DNA of 11,609 nucleotides from a virus (Duplodnaviria; Heunggongvirae; Uroviricota; Caudoviricetes). Both the position numbers and the translations under genes were made by a program. The stretch lies in the IMG/VR virus record IMGVR_UViG_2537561686_000004; one strand, given 5' to 3'. The notes under the pieces were generated by a model. The model had not been told where the DNA came from. It made no database searches and saw only the letters and a program-made list of their open reading frames with translations. The stretch's first letter is position 1. Each line of letters starts with the position of its first letter. Below, in pieces: positions 2,213-11,609 of the stretch.

Positions 2213-2947
2213 ATGCCTGTACCAAATCCTGTAATGCCGGTGAAAGGTGCCGGGACCACCCTGTGGGTTTATAAGGGGAAGCGGTGACCCTTATGCGAAT
2301 CCGCTTTCAGACGTTGACTGGTCGCGTCTGGCTAAAGTTAAAGACCTGACGCCCGGCGAACTGACCGCTGAGTCCTATGACGACAGCTATCTCGATGATG
2401 AAGATGCAGACTGGACTGCGACCGGGCAGGGGCAGAAATCTGCCGGAGATACCAGCTTCACGCTGGCGTGGATGCCCGGAGAGCAGGGGCAGCAGGCGCT
2501 GCTGGCGTGGTTTAATGAAGGCGATACCCGTGCCTATAAAATCCGCTTCCCGAACGGCACGGTCGATGTGTTCCGTGGCTGGGTCAGCAGTATCGGTAAG
2601 GCGGTGACGGCGAAGGAAGTGATCACCCGACGGTGAAGTCACCAAGTGGGCGTCCGTCATGGCAGAAGATCGCAGTACGGTACGCGGCAACCGGTATGAC
2701 TGTGACGCCTGCCAGCTCCTCGGTGGTGAAAGGGCAGAGCACCACGCTGACCGTGGCATTCCAGCCGGAGGGTGCAACTGACAAGAGCTTCCGTGCGGTG
2801 TCAGCGGATAAAACAAAAGCCACCGTGTCGGTCAGTGGTATGACCATCACCGTGAAAGGTGTTGCTGCAGGCAAGGTCAACATTCCGGTTGTATCCGGTA
2901 ATGGTGAACTTGCTGTGGTTGCAGAAATCACCGTCACCGACAGTTAA
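2213..2947 (+). pseudogene. V: major tail tube protein V (lambda gpV family), reading frame disrupted by small indels
   Basis: ATG at 2213 (GAGGA at 2204-2208) gives [22 protein letters not shown], then an apparent +1 insertion near 2276-2281 produces a TGA at 2285-2287. V sequence resumes in another frame ([36 protein letters not shown]...[20 protein letters not shown], to about 2630), then shifts again after a cluster of roughly seven 1-bp deletions at about 2625-2690, where MAEDRSTV is readable only in an alternate frame. The C-terminal Ig-like portion ([28 protein letters not shown]...[10 protein letters not shown]) ends at TAA 2945-2947. Confidence 0.8.
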
Positions 2948-2962
2948 TCCGGAGAGTCAGCG

Positions 2963-3385
2963 ATGTTCCTGAAAACCGAATCATTTGAATATAACGGTGT
3001 GAGCGTCACGCTTTCTGAACTGTCAGCCCTGCAGCGAATTGAGCATCTCGCCCTGCTGAAACGACAGGCAGAACAGGCGGGATCCAGTCTCAATCGACAG
3101 GTGAGCGTGGAAGATCTCGTCAGAACCGGTGCTTTTCTGGTGGCGATGTCCCTGTGGCATAGCCATCCGCAGAAGACAAAGATGCCGTCCATGAATGAAG
3201 CCGTTAAACAAATTGAGCAGGAAGTGCTTACCACCTGGCCCACAGAGGCAATTGCTCAGGCTGAAAATGTGGTAATGCGTCTGTCCGGTATGTCTGAGTT
3301 TGTTGTGAATGATGCACCTGAACAGGCAGATGACGCCGGGCCAGCAGAGCCTGTTTCTGCGGGAAAGTGTTCGACGGTGAGCTGA
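2963..3385 (+). CDS. G: tail assembly chaperone G (lambda gpG family)
   Basis: ATG at 2963 preceded by GGAGAG; 140 codons, the same length as lambda G. Translation MFLKTESFEYNGVSVTLSELSALQRIEHLALLKRQAEQ...PAEPVSAGKCSTVS. Contains the GGGAAAG slippery heptamer near its 3-prime end. Confidence 0.9.
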   Translation: MFLKTESFEYNGVSVTLSELSALQRIEHLALLKRQAEQAGSSLNRQVSVEDLVRTGAFLVAMSLWHSHPQKTKMPSMNEAVKQIEQEVLTTWPTEAIAQAENVVMRLSGMSEFVVNDAPEQADDAGPAEPVSAGKCSTVS

Positions 3386-3801
3386 GTTTTGCCCTGAAAC
3401 TGGCGCGTGAGATGGGGCGACCCGACTGGCGCGCCATGCTTGCCGGGATGTCATCCACGGAGTATGCCGACTGGCACCGCTTTTACAGTACCCATTATTT
3501 TCATGATGTTCTGCTGGATATGCACTTTTCCGGGCTGACGTACACCGTACTCAGCCTGTTTTTCAGCGATCCGGATATGCATCCGCTGGATTTCAGTCTG
3601 CTGAACCGGCGCGAGGCTGACGAAGAGCCTGAAGATGATGTGCTGATGCAGAAAGCGGCAGGGCTTGCCGGAGGCGTCCGCTTTGGCCCGGACGGGAATG
3701 AAGTTATCCCCGCTTCCCCGGATGTGGCGGACATGACGGAGGATGACGTAATGCTGATGACAGTATCAGAAGGGATCGCAGGAGGAGTCCGGTATGGCTG
3801 A
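2963..3801 (+). CDS. GT: tail assembly chaperone GT fusion (G frame 2963-3367 joined by -1 frameshift to T frame 3367-3801)
   Basis: The T frame is open from 3367 to TGA at 3799-3801 (144 codons: VFDGELSFALKLAREMGRPDWRAMLAGMSSTEYADWHRFYSTHYFHDVLLD...SEGIAGGVRYG) and has no independent ribosome-binding site. It is reached only by frameshifting from G, giving a predicted fusion of about 279 aa. Confidence 0.8.
3361..3367 (+). promoter_or_regulatory. programmed -1 ribosomal frameshift slippery site (G GGA AAG) for the G-T fusion
   Basis: Heptamer GGGAAAG at 3361-3367 with GGA and AAG in the G zero frame, so a -1 slip re-pairs to GGG AAA and continues in the T frame (GTG TTC GAC ...). Same heptamer and position as the lambda G/GT frameshift site. 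Confidence 0.85.
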
Positions 3802-6373
3802 ACCGGTAGGCGATCTGGTCGTTGATTTGAGTCTGGATGCGGCCAGATTTGACGAGCAGATGGCCAGAGTCAGGCGTCATTTTTCCGGTACGGAAAGTGA
3901 TGCGAAAAAAACAGCGGCAGTCGTTGAACAGTCGATGAACCGGCAGGCGCTGGCTGCACAGAAAGCGGGAGTTTCCGTCGGGCAGTATAAAGCCGCCATG
4001 CGTATGCTGCCTGCACAGTTCACCGACGTGGCCACGCAGCTTGCAGGCGGGCAAAGTCCGTGGCTGATCCTGCTGCAACAGGGGGGTCAGGTTAAGGACT
4101 CCTTCGGCGGGATGATCCCCATGTTCAGGGGGCTTGCCGGTGCGATCACCCTGCCGATGGTGGGGGCCACCTCGCTGGCGGTGGCGACCGGTGCGCTGGC
4201 GTATGCCTGGTATCAGGGCAACTCAACCCTGTCCGATTTCAACAAAACGCTGGTCCTTTCCGGCAATCAGGCGGGACTGACGGCAGATCGTATGCTGGTC
4301 CTGTCCAGAGCCGGGCAGGCGGCAGGGCTGACGTTTAACCAGACCAGCGAGTCACTGACGGCGCTGGTGAATGCCGGTGTGCGTGGTGGTGAGCAGTTTG
4401 AGGCGATCAGCCAGAGTGTGGCGCGTTTCTCCTCTGCATCCGGCGTGGAGGTGGACAAGGTCGCTGAAGCCTTCGGGAAGCTGACCACAGACCCGACGTC
4501 GGGACTGACAGCGATGGCACGTCAGTTCCATAACGTGACGGCGGAGCAGATTGCGTATGTTGCTCAGTTGCAGCGTTCCGGAGATGAAGCCGGGGCATTG
4601 CAGGCGGCGAACGAGGCCGCAACGAAAGGGTTTGATGACCAGACCCGCCGCCTGAAAGAGAACATGGGCACGCTGGAAACCTGGGCAGACAGGACAGCAC
4701 GGGCATTCAAATCCATGTGGGATTCGGTGCTGGATATTGGTCGCCCGGACACTGCCCAGGGAATGCTGGAGAAAGCAGAAAAGGCTTTTGATGAGGCGGA
4801 CAAAAAATGGCAGTGGTATCAGAGCCGGAGCCACCGGCGCGGTAAAACCTCAGCATTTCTTGCCAATCTCCGGGGAGCATGGGAGGACAGAGCGAATGCG
4901 CAACTTGGGCTTTCAGCCGCCACGTTGCAGGCCGATCTTGAAAAGGCCAGAGAGATGGCAGCAAAGGACTGGGCCGAGTCTGAGGCATCACGGCTGAAAT
5001 ATACCGAAGAGGCGCAGAAGGCTTACGAACGGCTGCAGACGCCGCTGGAGAAATATACCGCCCGTCAGGAAGAACTGAACAAGGCACTGAAAGACGGGAG
5101 AATCCTGCAGGCAGATTACAACACGCTGATGGCGGCGGCGAAAAAGGATTATGAAGCGACGCTGAAAAAGCCGAAACAGTCCGGCGTGAAAGTGTCTGCG
5201 GGCGATCGTCAGGAAGACAGTGCTCATGCTGCCCTGCTGACGCTTCAGGCAGAACTCCGGACGCTGGAGAAGCATGCCGGAGCAAATGAGAAAATCAGCC
5301 AGCAGCGCCGGGATTTGTGGAAGGCGGAGAGTCAGTTCGCGGTACTGGAGGAGGCGGCACAACGTCGCCAGCTGTCTGCACAGGAGAAATCCCTGCTGGC
5401 GCATAAAGATGAGACGCTGGAGTACAAACGCCAGCTGGCTGCACTTGGCGACAAGGTTACGTATCAGGAGCGCCTGAACGCGCTGGCGCAGCAGGCGGAT
5501 AAATTCGCACAGCAGCAACGGGCAAAACGGGCCGCCATTGATGCGAAAAGCCGGGGGCTGACTGACCGGCAGGCAGAACGGGAAGCCACGGAACAGCGCC
5601 TGAAGGAACAGTATGGCGATAATCCGCTGGCGCTGAATAACGTCATGTCAGAGCAGAAAAAGACCTGGGCGGCTGAAGACCAGCTTCGCGGGAACTGGAT
5701 GGCAGGCCTGAAGTCCGGCTGGAGTGAGTGGGAAGAGAGCGCCACGGACAGTATGTCGCAGGTAAAAAGTGCAGCCACGCAGACCTTTGATGGTATTGCA
5801 CAGAATATGGCGGCGATGCTGACCGGCAGTGAGCAGAACTGGCGCAGCTTCACCCGTTCCGTGCTGTCCATGATGACAGAAATTCTGCTTAAGCAGGCAA
5901 TGGTGGGGATTGTCGGGAGTATCGGCAGCGCCATTGGCGGTGCTGTTGGTGGCGGCGCATCCGCGTCAGGCGGTACAGCCATTCAGGCCGCTGCGGCGAA
6001 ATTCCATTTTGCAACCGGAGGATTTACGGGAACCGGCGGCAAATATGAGCCAGCGGGGATTGTTCACCGTGGTGAGTTTGTCTTCACGAAGGAGGCAACC
6101 AGCCGGATTGGTGTCGGCAACCTGTACCGCCTGATGCGCGGCTATGCCACCGGCGGTTATGTCGGTACACCGGGCGGCATGGCAGACAGCCGGTCGCAGG
6201 CGTCCGGGACGTTTGAGCAGAATAACCATGTGGTGATTAACAACGACGGCACGAACGGGCAGATAGGTCCGGCTGCTCTGAAGGCGGTGTATGACATGGC
6301 CCGCAAGGGTGCCCGTGATGAAATTCAGACACAGATGCGTGATGGTGGCCTGTTCTCCGGAGGTGGACGATGA
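3794..6373 (+). CDS. H: tail tape measure protein H (lambda gpH family)
   Basis: ATG at 3794 preceded by AGGAGGAG (3780-3787), overlapping the T-frame stop; uninterrupted 859 codons. N-terminus MAEPVGDLVVDLSLDAARFDEQMARVRRHFSGTESDAKK, a long coiled-coil-like Ala/Gln/Glu/Lys/Arg-rich middle, and a Gly-rich C-terminal region (GSIGSAIGGAVGGGASASGG...GGLFSGGGR) as in lambda H. Stop overlaps the M start (ATGA at 6370-6373). Confidence 0.92.
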   Translation: MAEPVGDLVVDLSLDAARFDEQMARVRRHFSGTESDAKKTAAVVEQSMNRQALAAQKAGVSVGQYKAAMRMLPAQFTDVATQLAGGQSPWLILLQQGGQVKDSFGGMIPMFRGLAGAITLPMVGATSLAVATGALAYAWYQGNSTLSDFNKTLVLSGNQAGLTADRMLVLSRAGQAAGLTFNQTSESLTALVNAGVRGGEQFEAISQSVARFSSASGVEVDKVAEAFGKLTTDPTSGLTAMARQFHNVTAEQIAYVAQLQRSGDEAGALQAANEAATKGFDDQTRRLKENMGTLETWADRTARAFKSMWDSVLDIGRPDTAQGMLEKAEKAFDEADKKWQWYQSRSHRRGKTSAFLANLRGAWEDRANAQLGLSAATLQADLEKAREMAAKDWAESEASRLKYTEEAQKAYERLQTPLEKYTARQEELNKALKDGRILQADYNTLMAAAKKDYEATLKKPKQSGVKVSAGDRQEDSAHAALLTLQAELRTLEKHAGANEKISQQRRDLWKAESQFAVLEEAAQRRQLSAQEKSLLAHKDETLEYKRQLAALGDKVTYQERLNALAQQADKFAQQQRAKRAAIDAKSRGLTDRQAEREATEQRLKEQYGDNPLALNNVMSEQKKTWAAEDQLRGNWMAGLKSGWSEWEESATDSMSQVKSAATQTFDGIAQNMAAMLTGSEQNWRSFTRSVLSMMTEILLKQAMVGIVGSIGSAIGGAVGGGASASGGTAIQAAAAKFHFATGGFTGTGGKYEPAGIVHRGEFVFTKEATSRIGVGNLYRLMRGYATGGYVGTPGGMADSRSQASGTFEQNNHVVINNDGTNGQIGPAALKAVYDMARKGARDEIQTQMRDGGLFSGGGR

Positions 6374-6699
6374 AGACCTTCCGCTGGAAAGTGAAACCCG
6401 GTATGGATGTGGCTTCGGTCCCTTCTGTAAGAAAGGTGCGCTTTGGTGATGGCTATTCTCAGCGAGCGCCTGCCGGGCTGAATGCCAACCTGAAAACGTA
6501 CAGCGTGACGCTTTCTGTCCCCCGTGAGGAGGCCACGGTACTGGAGTCGTTTCTGGAAGAGCACGGGGGCTGGAAATCCTTTCTGTGGACGCCGCCTTAT
6601 GAGTGGCGGCAGATAAAGGTGACCTGCGCAAAATGGTCGTCGCGGGTCAGTATGCTGCGTGTTGAGTTCAGCGCAGAGTTTGAACAGGTGGTGAACTGA
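6370..6699 (+). CDS. M: tail tip protein M (lambda gpM family)
   Basis: 109 codons, the same length as lambda M. Translation MKTFRWKVKPGMDVASVPSVRKVRFGDGYSQRAPAGLNANLKTYSVTLSVPREEATVLESFLEEHGGWKSFLWTPPYEWRQIKVTCAKWSSRVSMLRVEFSAEFEQVVN. GGAGGTGG ribosome-binding site upstream; stop overlaps the L start (TGATG at 6697-6701). Confidence 0.9.
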   Translation: MKTFRWKVKPGMDVASVPSVRKVRFGDGYSQRAPAGLNANLKTYSVTLSVPREEATVLESFLEEHGGWKSFLWTPPYEWRQIKVTCAKWSSRVSMLRVEFSAEFEQVVN

Positions 6700-7349
6700 T
6701 GCAGGATATCCGGCAGGAAACACTGAATGAATGCACCCGTGCGGAGCAGTCGGCCAGCGTGGTGCTCTGGGAAATCGACCTGACAGAGGTCGGTGGAGAA
6801 CGTTATTTTTTCTGTAATGAGCAGAACGAAAAAGGTGAGCCGGTCACCTGGCAGGGGCGCAGTATCAGCTACCCATTCAGGGGAGGTTTGAACTGAAGGA
6901 AGGCATCCGCCACCTGACGGTTCTAACCTGACGGATGTCACCGGGATGGCGGAAGATGCAGAGTCTGGTCGGCGGAACGGTGGTCCGGCGTAAGGTTTAC
7001 GCCCGTTTCTGGATGCGGTGAACTTCGTCAACGGAAACAGAGCCGATCCGGAGCAGGAGGTGATCAGCCGCTGGCGCATGAGCAGTGAGCGAACTGAGGC
7101 GGTAGTGCCTCTTTGTCTTCCACCCGACGAAACGGAGGGCTGTTTTTCCGGGCGATCATGCTGGCCAACACCTGCACCTGGACCTATCGCGGTGAGAGTG
7201 CGGTTATCGGTCCGGCGTCGCGATGAATATGACCAGCCGACGTCCGATATCACGAAGGATAAATGCAGCAAATGCCTGAGGGCTGTAAGTTTCGCAATAA
7301 CGTCGGCAACTTTGGCGGCTTCCTTTCCATTAACAAACTTTCGCAGTAA
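6699..7349 (+). pseudogene. L: tail tip protein L (lambda gpL family), heavily frame-disrupted
   Basis: ATG at 6699 gives MQDIRQETLNECTRAEQSASVVLWEIDLTEVGGERYFFCNEQNEKGEPVTWQGR, then the frame is lost at about 6855 (stop at 6894-6896). L-like peptides reappear in shifting frames (NFVNGN-ADPEQEVISRWR at about 7020-7080, TCTWTYRG at about 7170-7200, DEYDQPTSDITKDKCSKCL at about 7220-7280). The C-terminus CKFRNNVGNFGGFLSINKLSQ is back in the original frame with TAA at 7347-7349. Span is 651 nt versus about 699 expected. Confidence 0.78.
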
Positions 7350-7353
7350 TCCC

Positions 7354-8095
7354 ATGACAAGACAGAATCAGCGATTCTGGCGCACGCCCGGCGATGTGCG
7401 CCAGCGGAGTCGTGCGGCTTCGTGGTGAGAACGCCGGAGGAGGAAAGATATTTTCCCTGCGTGAATATCTCCGGTGAGCCGGAGGCGTATTTCCGGATGT
7501 CGCCGGAGGACTGGCTGCAGGCAGAAATGCAGGGTGAGATTGTGGCGCTGGTCCACAGCCACCCCGGTGGTCTGCCCTGGCTGAGTGAGGCCGACCGGCG
7601 GCTGCAGGTGCAGAGTGATTTGCCGTGGTGGCTGGTCTGCCGGGGGGCGATTCATAAGTTCCGCTGTGTGCCGCATCTCACCGGGCGGCGCTTTGAGCAC
7701 GGGGTGACGGACTGTTACACGCTGTTCCGGGATGCTTACATCTGGCGGGAATTGAGATGCCGGATTTTCATCGCGGGGATAACTGGTGGCGTCACGGTCA
7801 GAATCTCTATCTGGATAATCTGGAGGCCACAGGGCTGTATCAGGTGCCGTTGTCAGCGGCGCAGCCGGGCGATGTGCTGCTGTGCTGTTTTGGTTCATCG
7901 GTGCCGAATCATGCCGCCATTTACTGCGGCGACGGTGAGCTGCTGCACCATATTCCTGAACAACTGAGTAAACGAGAGAGGTATACCGACAAATGGCAGC
8001 GACGCACACACTCCCTCTGGCGTCACCGGGCATGGCACGCATCTGCCTTTACGGGGATTTGCAACGATTTGGCCGCCGCATCGACCTTCGTGTGA
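7354..8095 (+). pseudogene. K: tail tip assembly protein K (lambda gpK family; JAB/MPN metalloprotease plus NlpC/P60 peptidase domains), frame-disrupted
   Basis: ATG at 7354 opens MTRQNQRFWRTPGDVRQRSRAASW, which stops at 7426-7428. The JAB-like part is in frame 0 (…FPCVNISGEPEAYFRMSPEDWLQAEMQGEIVALVHSHPGGLPWLSEADRR…GVTDCYTLFRDAY) with the HxHx7Sx2D motif at 7554-7595 and the NlpC/P60 Cys at 7713-7715. After about 7740 this frame becomes nonsense, and the K sequence continues in frame 2 from about 7757 (MPDFHRGDNWWRHGQNLYLDNLEATGLYQVPLSAAQPGDVLLCCFGSSVPNHAAIY…STFV) to TGA 8093-8095. The catalytic Cys and His (7910-7912) are therefore in different frames. Confidence 0.75.
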
Positions 8096-8639
8096 AAACG
8101 GGGGCCGAAGCCATCCGGGCGCTGGCCATGCAGATCCCGGCGTTTCGTCAGAAACTGAGCGACGGCTGGTATCAGGTACGCATTGCCGGGCGTGATGCAG
8201 GTGAAACCGAATTGTCTGCCCGTCTTAATGAGCCGCTGGCAAATGGTGCCGTGATCCATATCGTGCCGCGTCTGGCGGGAGCTAAAAGTGGCGGTGTGTT
8301 TCAGGTGGTGCTGGGGGCGGCGTTGATTGCGGTGGCATGGTGGAACCCTGTGGGCTGGCTGGGTGCCGCGGCTGTATCGGGCATGTATGCGGCAGGGGCC
8401 AGTATGATCCTGGGCGGAGTGGCGCAGATGCTGGCACCGAAAGCCAGGACGCCCACGGCAGCAAGTACAGATAACGGCAAACAGAACACCTATTTCTCCT
8501 CACTGGATAACATGGTTGCCCAGGGCAATGTTCTGCCTGTTCTGTACGGTGAAATGCGCGTGGGGTCACGGTGGTTTCTCAGGAGATCAGCACGGCAGAC
8601 GAAGGGGATGGTGGTCAGGTTGTGGTGATTGGTCGCTGA
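7993..8639 (+). CDS. I: tail tip assembly protein I (lambda gpI family), with an apparent frameshift near the C-terminus
   Basis: ATG at 7993, overlapping the last 103 nt of K in a different frame. Translation MAATHTLPLASPGMARICLYGDLQRFGRRIDLRVKTGAEAIRALAMQIPAFRQKLSDGWYQVRIAGRD...TDNGKQNTYFSSLDNMVAQGNVLPVLYGEMRVGSR. After about 8565 this frame reads WFLRRSARQTKGMVVRLW and stops at 8628, whereas a 1-bp-shifted frame reads the protein-like VVSQEISTADEGDGGQVVVIGR ending at TGA 8637-8639. Span is 647 nt, not a multiple of three. Confidence 0.75.
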
Positions 8640-8657
8640 TGCAAAATGTTTTATGTG

Positions 8658-8689
8658 AAACCGCCTCCGGGCGGTTTTGTCGTTTATGG
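8658..8689 (+). terminator. terminator-like stem-loop between I and J
   Basis: Inverted repeat AAACCGCC (8658-8665) / GGCGGTTT (8670-8677) around a TCCG loop, followed by TGTCGTTTATGG, just upstream of the J ribosome-binding site and start. Confidence 0.3.
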
Positions 8690-8699
8690 AGCATGACGA

Positions 8700-11609
<2,910 letters not shown>

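Follow-up and report, generated by a model that had tools for sequence, protein, structure and literature searches.

The small deletions that break up the tail genes in the window, by which we mean the whole 11,609-nt stretch of DNA analysed here, are very probably an assembly artefact, in which two merged lambdoid copies would have been collapsed into one consensus contig. The underlying L gene or genes are best read as intact, in effect two L alleles that were garbled by consensus calling, and the genes of the underlying tail module are most likely intact too. A preliminary description of this DNA had called the tail tip gene L fragmented; the word fits the sequence as written, but not the gene itself as we read it. 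Since the deletions fall on wobble or polymorphic columns, come without substitutions and can be regenerated from two natural alleles, it is very unlikely that they are physically present in the DNA.

Organization of the window

The window is a late operon of the lambda type; it contains the end of E, followed by FI, FII, Z, U, V, G/T, H, M, L, K and I, and the first two thirds only of J. The order of the ORFs (E-FI-FII-Z-U-V-G-T-H-M-L-K-I-J) is collinear with that in annotated prophages of enterotoxigenic (ETEC) and other E. coli. The G, T and H genes, of which H encodes the 859-aa tape measure, are intact, and the GGGAAAG heptamer, which directs the programmed −1 frameshift of lambda G/T, is located at positions 3361–3367, in the overlap of the G and T ORFs. 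The top full-length match to the window is NZ_LR883006.1, with an identity of 97.0% between the 11,609 nt of the window and 11,711 nt of the record. In the region 4000–8353 of this record (L001), both H and K are annotated as frameshifted, and L contains an internal stop, a TAA in place of the TAC of lambda. The same isolate has a separate 46-kb circular record, NZ_LR883007.1, which carries the same phage module. The coordinates of the features discussed below are listed in Table 1.

Table 1. Positions of intact, deleted and reproduced features in the window
Feature	Position	Strand	Remarks
V, one extra base	2275	+	tandem G and A at a glycine codon with a variable wobble base (GGA/GGG/GGC/GGT)
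V C-terminal part, seven single-base deletions	2630..2684	+	V split into ORFs 2247-2636 and 2633-2947
Deletion-free block (G, T, H, M, start of L)	2950..6855	+	3906:3906 nt, no indel
Remnant of the lambda-type minor tail protein L gene	6699..7349	+	651 nt vs 699; reading frame kept for 54 codons only
L deletion cluster	6860..7360	+	~37 events, 49-50 nt removed, mostly single bases, 0 insertions
K, isolated single-base deletions	7739..7849	+	three vs the ETEC reference, one vs the best natural allele
I, single-base deletion near the 3' end	8571	+	I C-terminus changed; one gap vs the best natural allele
Tail tip gene J, deletion cluster	9086..10605	+	about 40-44 events, 46-49 nt removed
J stretch of 278 nt	9617..9894	+	exact product of deleting the 9 columns discordant between L093 and L122

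Gene L is broken by closely spaced small deletions

As in the lambda tail operon, L is located between M and K; it opens with the ATG at 6699, which overlaps the stop codon of M. Like its position, the N-terminal sequence of L agrees with that of lambda gpL (PF05100): the first 54 residues are identical, through ...VTWQGR. The intact start reported in the preliminary description is therefore real, whereas its count of 52 codons falls short of the 54 identical residues. The ORF that begins at 6699 encodes 65 aa and stops at 6896; the remainder of the gene is scattered over three frames. Different from lambda gpL, L in the window has no intact ORF of ~232 codons, it is left with this 65-aa N-terminal fragment and out-of-frame pieces. 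The Phage_tail_L (PF05100) profile matched the window fragments with scores of 35.4 and 36 bits (cutoff 25), covering profile positions 1–32 and 163–188 only; the first ORF accounts for positions 1–32. Among the L-like peptides, MQSLVGGTVVRRKVYAR starts from 6956, VNFVNGN-R-ADPEQEVISRWR from 7018 and IMLANTCTWTYRG from 7155, the last one in the frame of the start codon. Such peptides were found in all three frames, as had been described.

The deletion events in L were counted by aligning the window with lambda and with a prophage of ETEC, and on both alignments a lambda-type L broken by dense small deletions was seen, in agreement with the earlier observation. From start to stop, L spans 651 nt instead of 699, so the 48 nt missing are those that had been estimated. 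The very high deletion density reported for 6855–6960 was also confirmed, with 15 deletion events and 26 nt gone between 6860 and 6956. Against the ETEC reference, the region 6501–7500 has 37 deletions, 8 substitutions and 0 insertions. One earlier detail had to be revised: the presumed in-frame 3-nt loss at NGN-R-ADP consists of three separate single-column losses, which turn AGT TAC GCC into AG..A. GCC.

In principle, the pieces of L could be joined during translation by programmed recoding with multiple ribosomal frameshifts. Lambda tail genes use one programmed −1 frameshift, at G-T, and the G-T heptamer of the window is intact. Recoding of L, however, would take ~37 events in 500 nt without slippery sites; moreover, the missing bases take codons and parts of codons away, and the natural homologues are plain intact ORFs. 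The probability that L is expressed in this way is negligible.

The damage extends to V, K, I and J but spares a 3.9-kb block

Aligned globally over its full length, the window shows 99 deletion events, which remove 117 nt, and 13 insertions. Clusters of deletions are located in V (2630–2684), L, K, I and J (9086–10605), and no deletion is present in the 3.9 kb of G-T-H-M. Not L alone but five tail genes, V, L, K, I and J, are broken; the damage had been placed at 6850–7349 in the preliminary description, which is correct for L but missed the other four.

At 2275, the window reads AAGGGGAAGC, compared to AAGGGAAGC or AAGGGGAGC in natural alleles. The extra base, the single insertion specific to the window, is missing in both prophage copies of an ETEC genome (strain 120899, see below) and frameshifts the start of V. 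The deletions in K suffice to split this gene into two ORFs.

The block between 2950 and 6855 is 99.5% identical to many E. coli prophages without any indel. It can be used as an internal control, which indicates that the contig is not generally indel-noisy. Similarly, no gap was observed at positions 8700–9080 and 10650–11609 when they were compared with the best natural loci.

The deletions follow natural allelic variation

For the polymorphism test, ~200 natural lambdoid loci from IMG/VR were projected onto a reference, and columns with a minor-allele frequency (MAF) of >2% were taken as polymorphic. These loci were picked on L only, so the test is unbiased for J. With regard to codon position, 48 of the 55 in-gene single-nt deletions that could be placed unambiguously are at position 3 (binomial P=1.6e-16); the placement of a further 29 is ambiguous, with position 3 among the options. 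Within L, 19 deletions are clearly at position 3, 7 are ambiguous including position 3 and 1 is at position 1.

The polymorphism test gave a similar picture. In J, 38 of 39 single-nt deletions are at columns with MAF>2%, against a background of 22% (P=3.5e-24), and in L this is true of 26 of 29, against a background of 18% (P=1e-16). The same holds for all single-nt deletions in V, K and I (16/16), with 7/7 of the V deletions at polymorphic sites. Four deletions, three of them in L, are below the MAF cut-off, at columns that are still polymorphic at 1–2%; all single-nt deletions lie at columns that vary among the ~200 natural IMG/VR lambdoid loci. In an independent panel of eight phages, 32 of 50 gap columns were polymorphic, compared to 17% expected. 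Neither the codon-position test nor the polymorphism test relies on a chosen relative, and together they indicate that the deletions follow natural allelic variation.

The deleted bases showed no enrichment in homopolymers (55 of 86 are in runs of length 1, against a background of 55%) and no base bias, the four nucleotides being lost about equally. Base-specific editing and a diversity-generating retroelement were considered and rejected, owing to the equal loss of all four bases and the lack of run-length bias.

These distributions bear on ordinary random indel error, such as might arise when long reads (nanopore or PacBio) of one phage copy, with alleles unmixed, are assembled and left unpolished. 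The deletion bias and the many frameshifts do look like those of unpolished long-read assemblies, and the long-read-like record CP061244.1 has similar damage in L. However, homopolymer noise should be enriched in runs and evenly spread, whereas the run lengths here equal the background, and the deletions are strongly clustered, leaving 3.9 kb free of indels. Random error cannot know which columns are third codon positions or polymorphic, nor would it yield exactly the columns shared by two natural alleles over 278 nt, as described below for J. We therefore consider it a highly improbable source of the damage.

Even less probable is genuine pseudogenisation, by which a cryptic lambdoid prophage would truly have gathered many small tail-gene deletions in the chromosome. 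Defective lambdoid prophages whose tail genes are broken are common in E. coli, and L, H and K are annotated as pseudogenes, with an internal stop or frameshifts, in the closest RefSeq relative (NZ_LR883006.1). Decay, however, ignores both reading frame and population polymorphism, while the deletions here keep to position 3 and to variable sites. It also produces more substitutions than indels; L has ~37 deletions, no insertions and, compared to natural alleles, 0 substitutions, and the neighbouring 3.9 kb is untouched. The codon-position-random mutations, accompanied by substitutions, that mark a pseudogene were not observed. The earlier remark that the damage is hard to reconcile with ordinary mutational decay is in line with this placement and with the lack of substitutions.

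The lesions of a pseudogene should also be inherited in related genomes, and no such inheritance was observed in the collections searched. A megablast search with 6855–7365 found the broken L in 0 of 5,426 complete E. coli genomes, the best full-coverage match being 91.3% identical; in the plasmid collection, the best match was 91.1% identical. An exact 83-nt string of the broken L was absent from IMG/VR, GTDB genomes and JGI metagenome contigs. Searches of genome, phage and plasmid records with the full 11,609 nt likewise yielded no record sharing the broken L.

Loss of discordant columns between natural alleles reproduces part of the window

Six natural L alleles can be converted into L of the window by deletion alone, with 0 substitutions and 0 insertions. 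One of the six, L013, encodes a full 232-aa Phage_tail_L protein (336.8 bits, profile positions 1–206 of 206). With the deleted columns restored, L of the window thus matches natural alleles of the lambda gpL family that encode the full 232-aa protein. After rewriting of the window L with N at the deleted positions, two IUPAC patterns of ~195 nt were obtained, each of which is exactly present in >100 natural contigs. Among the matching contigs, 17 of 18 and 24 of 26 N positions of the two patterns are polymorphic, and pairs of natural haplotypes differ at up to 16 of 18 and 17 of 26 N positions per L half.

The clearest case is located in J. The J alleles of two natural IMG/VR loci, L093 and L122, are 96.9% identical; removal of their discordant columns regenerates all nine deletions (9/9) of the stretch 9617–9894 and gives its exact sequence (Table 1). 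For other segments, natural pairs that differ at the deletion sites and otherwise agree with the window were identified for V (7/7, for example L024/L028), for two segments of J (8/8 in each) and for the 3′ half of L (20/24). For L024/L028, L032/L122 and L009/L046, however, an exact match to the window was prevented by 1–3 further discordant columns in each pair. In one L example worked out by hand, the window sequence GGCATCCGCCACCTGACGG consists of the columns common to GGCACCAGTACGCGCCCCACGCTGACGG of lambda and GGCAGTGCTGCCCGTCCGACACTGACGG of phage 473R12. Over the whole of L, the shared columns of all pairs among 57 unique natural alleles, a pattern-biased sample, came within an edit distance of 29 of the window at best, and no single natural pair that regenerates the whole gene was found in the sampled databases.

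Two related lambdoid prophages carrying the tail module of the window (L222 and L223) are present in one genome, that of ETEC strain 120899 (NZ_CP025916.1). As the two parents they were rejected, because they do not reproduce the window. At the sites in G-T-H where L222 and L223 differ, the window simply agrees with copy 2; the two do not differ from each other in the 5′ half of L, yet the window has gaps there.

Proposed collapse of two copies into one consensus

To account for these observations, we propose that two near-identical (~99%) mosaic lambda-like late regions were merged, which could have been paralogous prophages in one E. coli or a mixture of phages. The two copies would be identical over long blocks (1–2629, about 2690–6859, about 8600–9085 and about 10650 to the end) and would differ by ~3–9% in the patches within V, L, K, I and J, with ~9% in L, ~3% in J and ~1% overall. 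We infer that both alleles were together in the sequenced sample and that the assembler left the copies unseparated. At a discordant column, two alleles at ~50% each, minus read error, would leave neither tag at half of the coverage; neither base would have a majority, the column would be skipped and the consensus would emit nothing. Once, at 2275, it would instead have emitted both allelic bases. The output would be made up of the columns common to both alleles, it would look like a set of 1-nt wobble deletions, and the reading frame would be lost in L, V, K, I and J.

The likeliest candidate for the software step that dropped the columns is a match/indel-only alignment from which the consensus is taken by majority or by the highest-weight path, in the manner of falcon_sense or pbdagcon-style correction. 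Alignments of the falcon_sense type contain matches and indels only, so a mismatch is represented by one deletion plus one insertion. Stripping of IUPAC ambiguity codes at mixed positions is a less likely cause; the tandem bases at 2275 argue against mere stripping. As described in the Canu paper, falcon_sense correction combines Myers O(ND) alignment with a DAG and its highest-weight path (PMC5411767). For simulated repeats without spanning reads, Canu separated copies only at a divergence of at least 3%, and FALCON only at 5% (PMC5411767). The overall divergence of ~1% proposed here would be below the level at which an overlap/consensus assembler separates copies.

We also built a toy consensus, in which simulated noisy reads of the natural J alleles L093 and L122 were subjected to match/indel-only alignment and majority rule. 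At a ratio of 50:50, an average of 4.8 of the 9 discordant columns were deleted, and no other column was. Nothing was deleted with a single allele or with a 25% minority, and at 75% net deletions remained at discordant columns. With an exact 50:50 mixture, the toy thus drops no more than about half of the discordant columns; in the window nearly all seem to be gone, which means that the details of the real pipeline must be different.

The window resembles the known collapsed-repeat or mixed-haplotype errors of falcon_sense- and pbdagcon-type consensus in several respects. In such errors, as would be the case here, copies below the separation threshold are merged, errors appear at inter-copy differences alone and the concordant sequence is perfect. 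The toy matched this selectivity, and the apparently near-complete loss of columns in the window exceeds that of the toy. Errors at inter-copy variant sites are what the polymorphism and codon-position tests revealed, and identity of the window with the columns shared by two plausible parents was obtained for 9617–9894, though with no pair in the sampled databases for the whole of L. The concordant regions (2950–6855, 8700–9080 and 10650–11609) are free of indels.

The positional statistics alone would also be compatible with real deletions, if some unknown process excised 1 nt per heteroduplex mismatch between diverged lambdoid prophage copies, as these too would sit at sites that vary between alleles. 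No mismatch-processing pathway is known to us that takes out 1 nt at each mismatch along hundreds of bases, and in mismatch repair one of the two alleles is restored. Such a process would have inactivated five essential tail genes at once, its product was found in no other genome of the collections searched, and the tandem bases at 2275 are typical of alignment-based consensus, not of repair. If true, it would constitute a mismatch-directed micro-deletion pathway that inactivates recombinant prophage modules, but we regard this as scarcely credible, less so than either random error or pseudogenisation.

Related records and consequences for annotation

Bases are missing in another deposited record as well. 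In CP061244.1, a 1.41-Mb 'plasmid' (pSTEC411_1) of E. coli STEC411, the L region is unannotated and lacks bases at several of the spots affected in the window; the variable spots shared by the two are AACAG[TT]AC, the GGCACCAGTACG block and GCAT[T]GAG. Its L (L224, 875756–876906) is altered more mildly, with 6 events removing 10 nt and with 10 substitutions compared to the nearest natural allele. The pattern suggests that CP061244.1 is a deposited assembly with the same kind of consensus artefact. It has fewer deletions than the window and is not its source.

Like the window, defective lambdoid prophages have broken tail genes in a lambda-like module within E. coli. Their lesions comprise single stops or frameshifts, substitutions, deletions of larger size and inserted IS elements, such as ISCro1 in Z of ETEC 120899; different from these, the window has 1-nt losses by the dozen, all at wobble or polymorphic columns. 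The window probably holds nothing biologically new, the underlying L being of the ordinary lambda type and the tail module probably intact. The contig should not be annotated with pseudogenes of L, V, K, I and J, nor should it be counted as a defective prophage. Two lambdoid phages or prophages, closely related and merged in the contig, are probably present in the sample from which it came. The signature of 1-nt deletions on wobble or population-polymorphic columns, with no substitutions and with clean flanks, provides a cheap, read-free means of recognizing, in public assemblies, mobile-element regions with consensus errors from collapsed copies.

The two prophage copies of ETEC 120899 illustrate the mosaicism that makes such copies collapse. 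G-T-H-M of the window tracks copy 2 (99.5%), whereas the head end and J track copy 1. In one of the two copies, gene Z is split by an insertion of ISCro1, an element of the IS66 family. At the head end, in the FI region, positions 1–2620 of the window differ from the best natural locus (L206) by one 9-nt indel in addition to the 1-nt insertion at 2275. FI is 141 aa in length in the window, and annotated relatives have an FI of 128–131 aa; the difference probably reflects ordinary variation in length among alleles.
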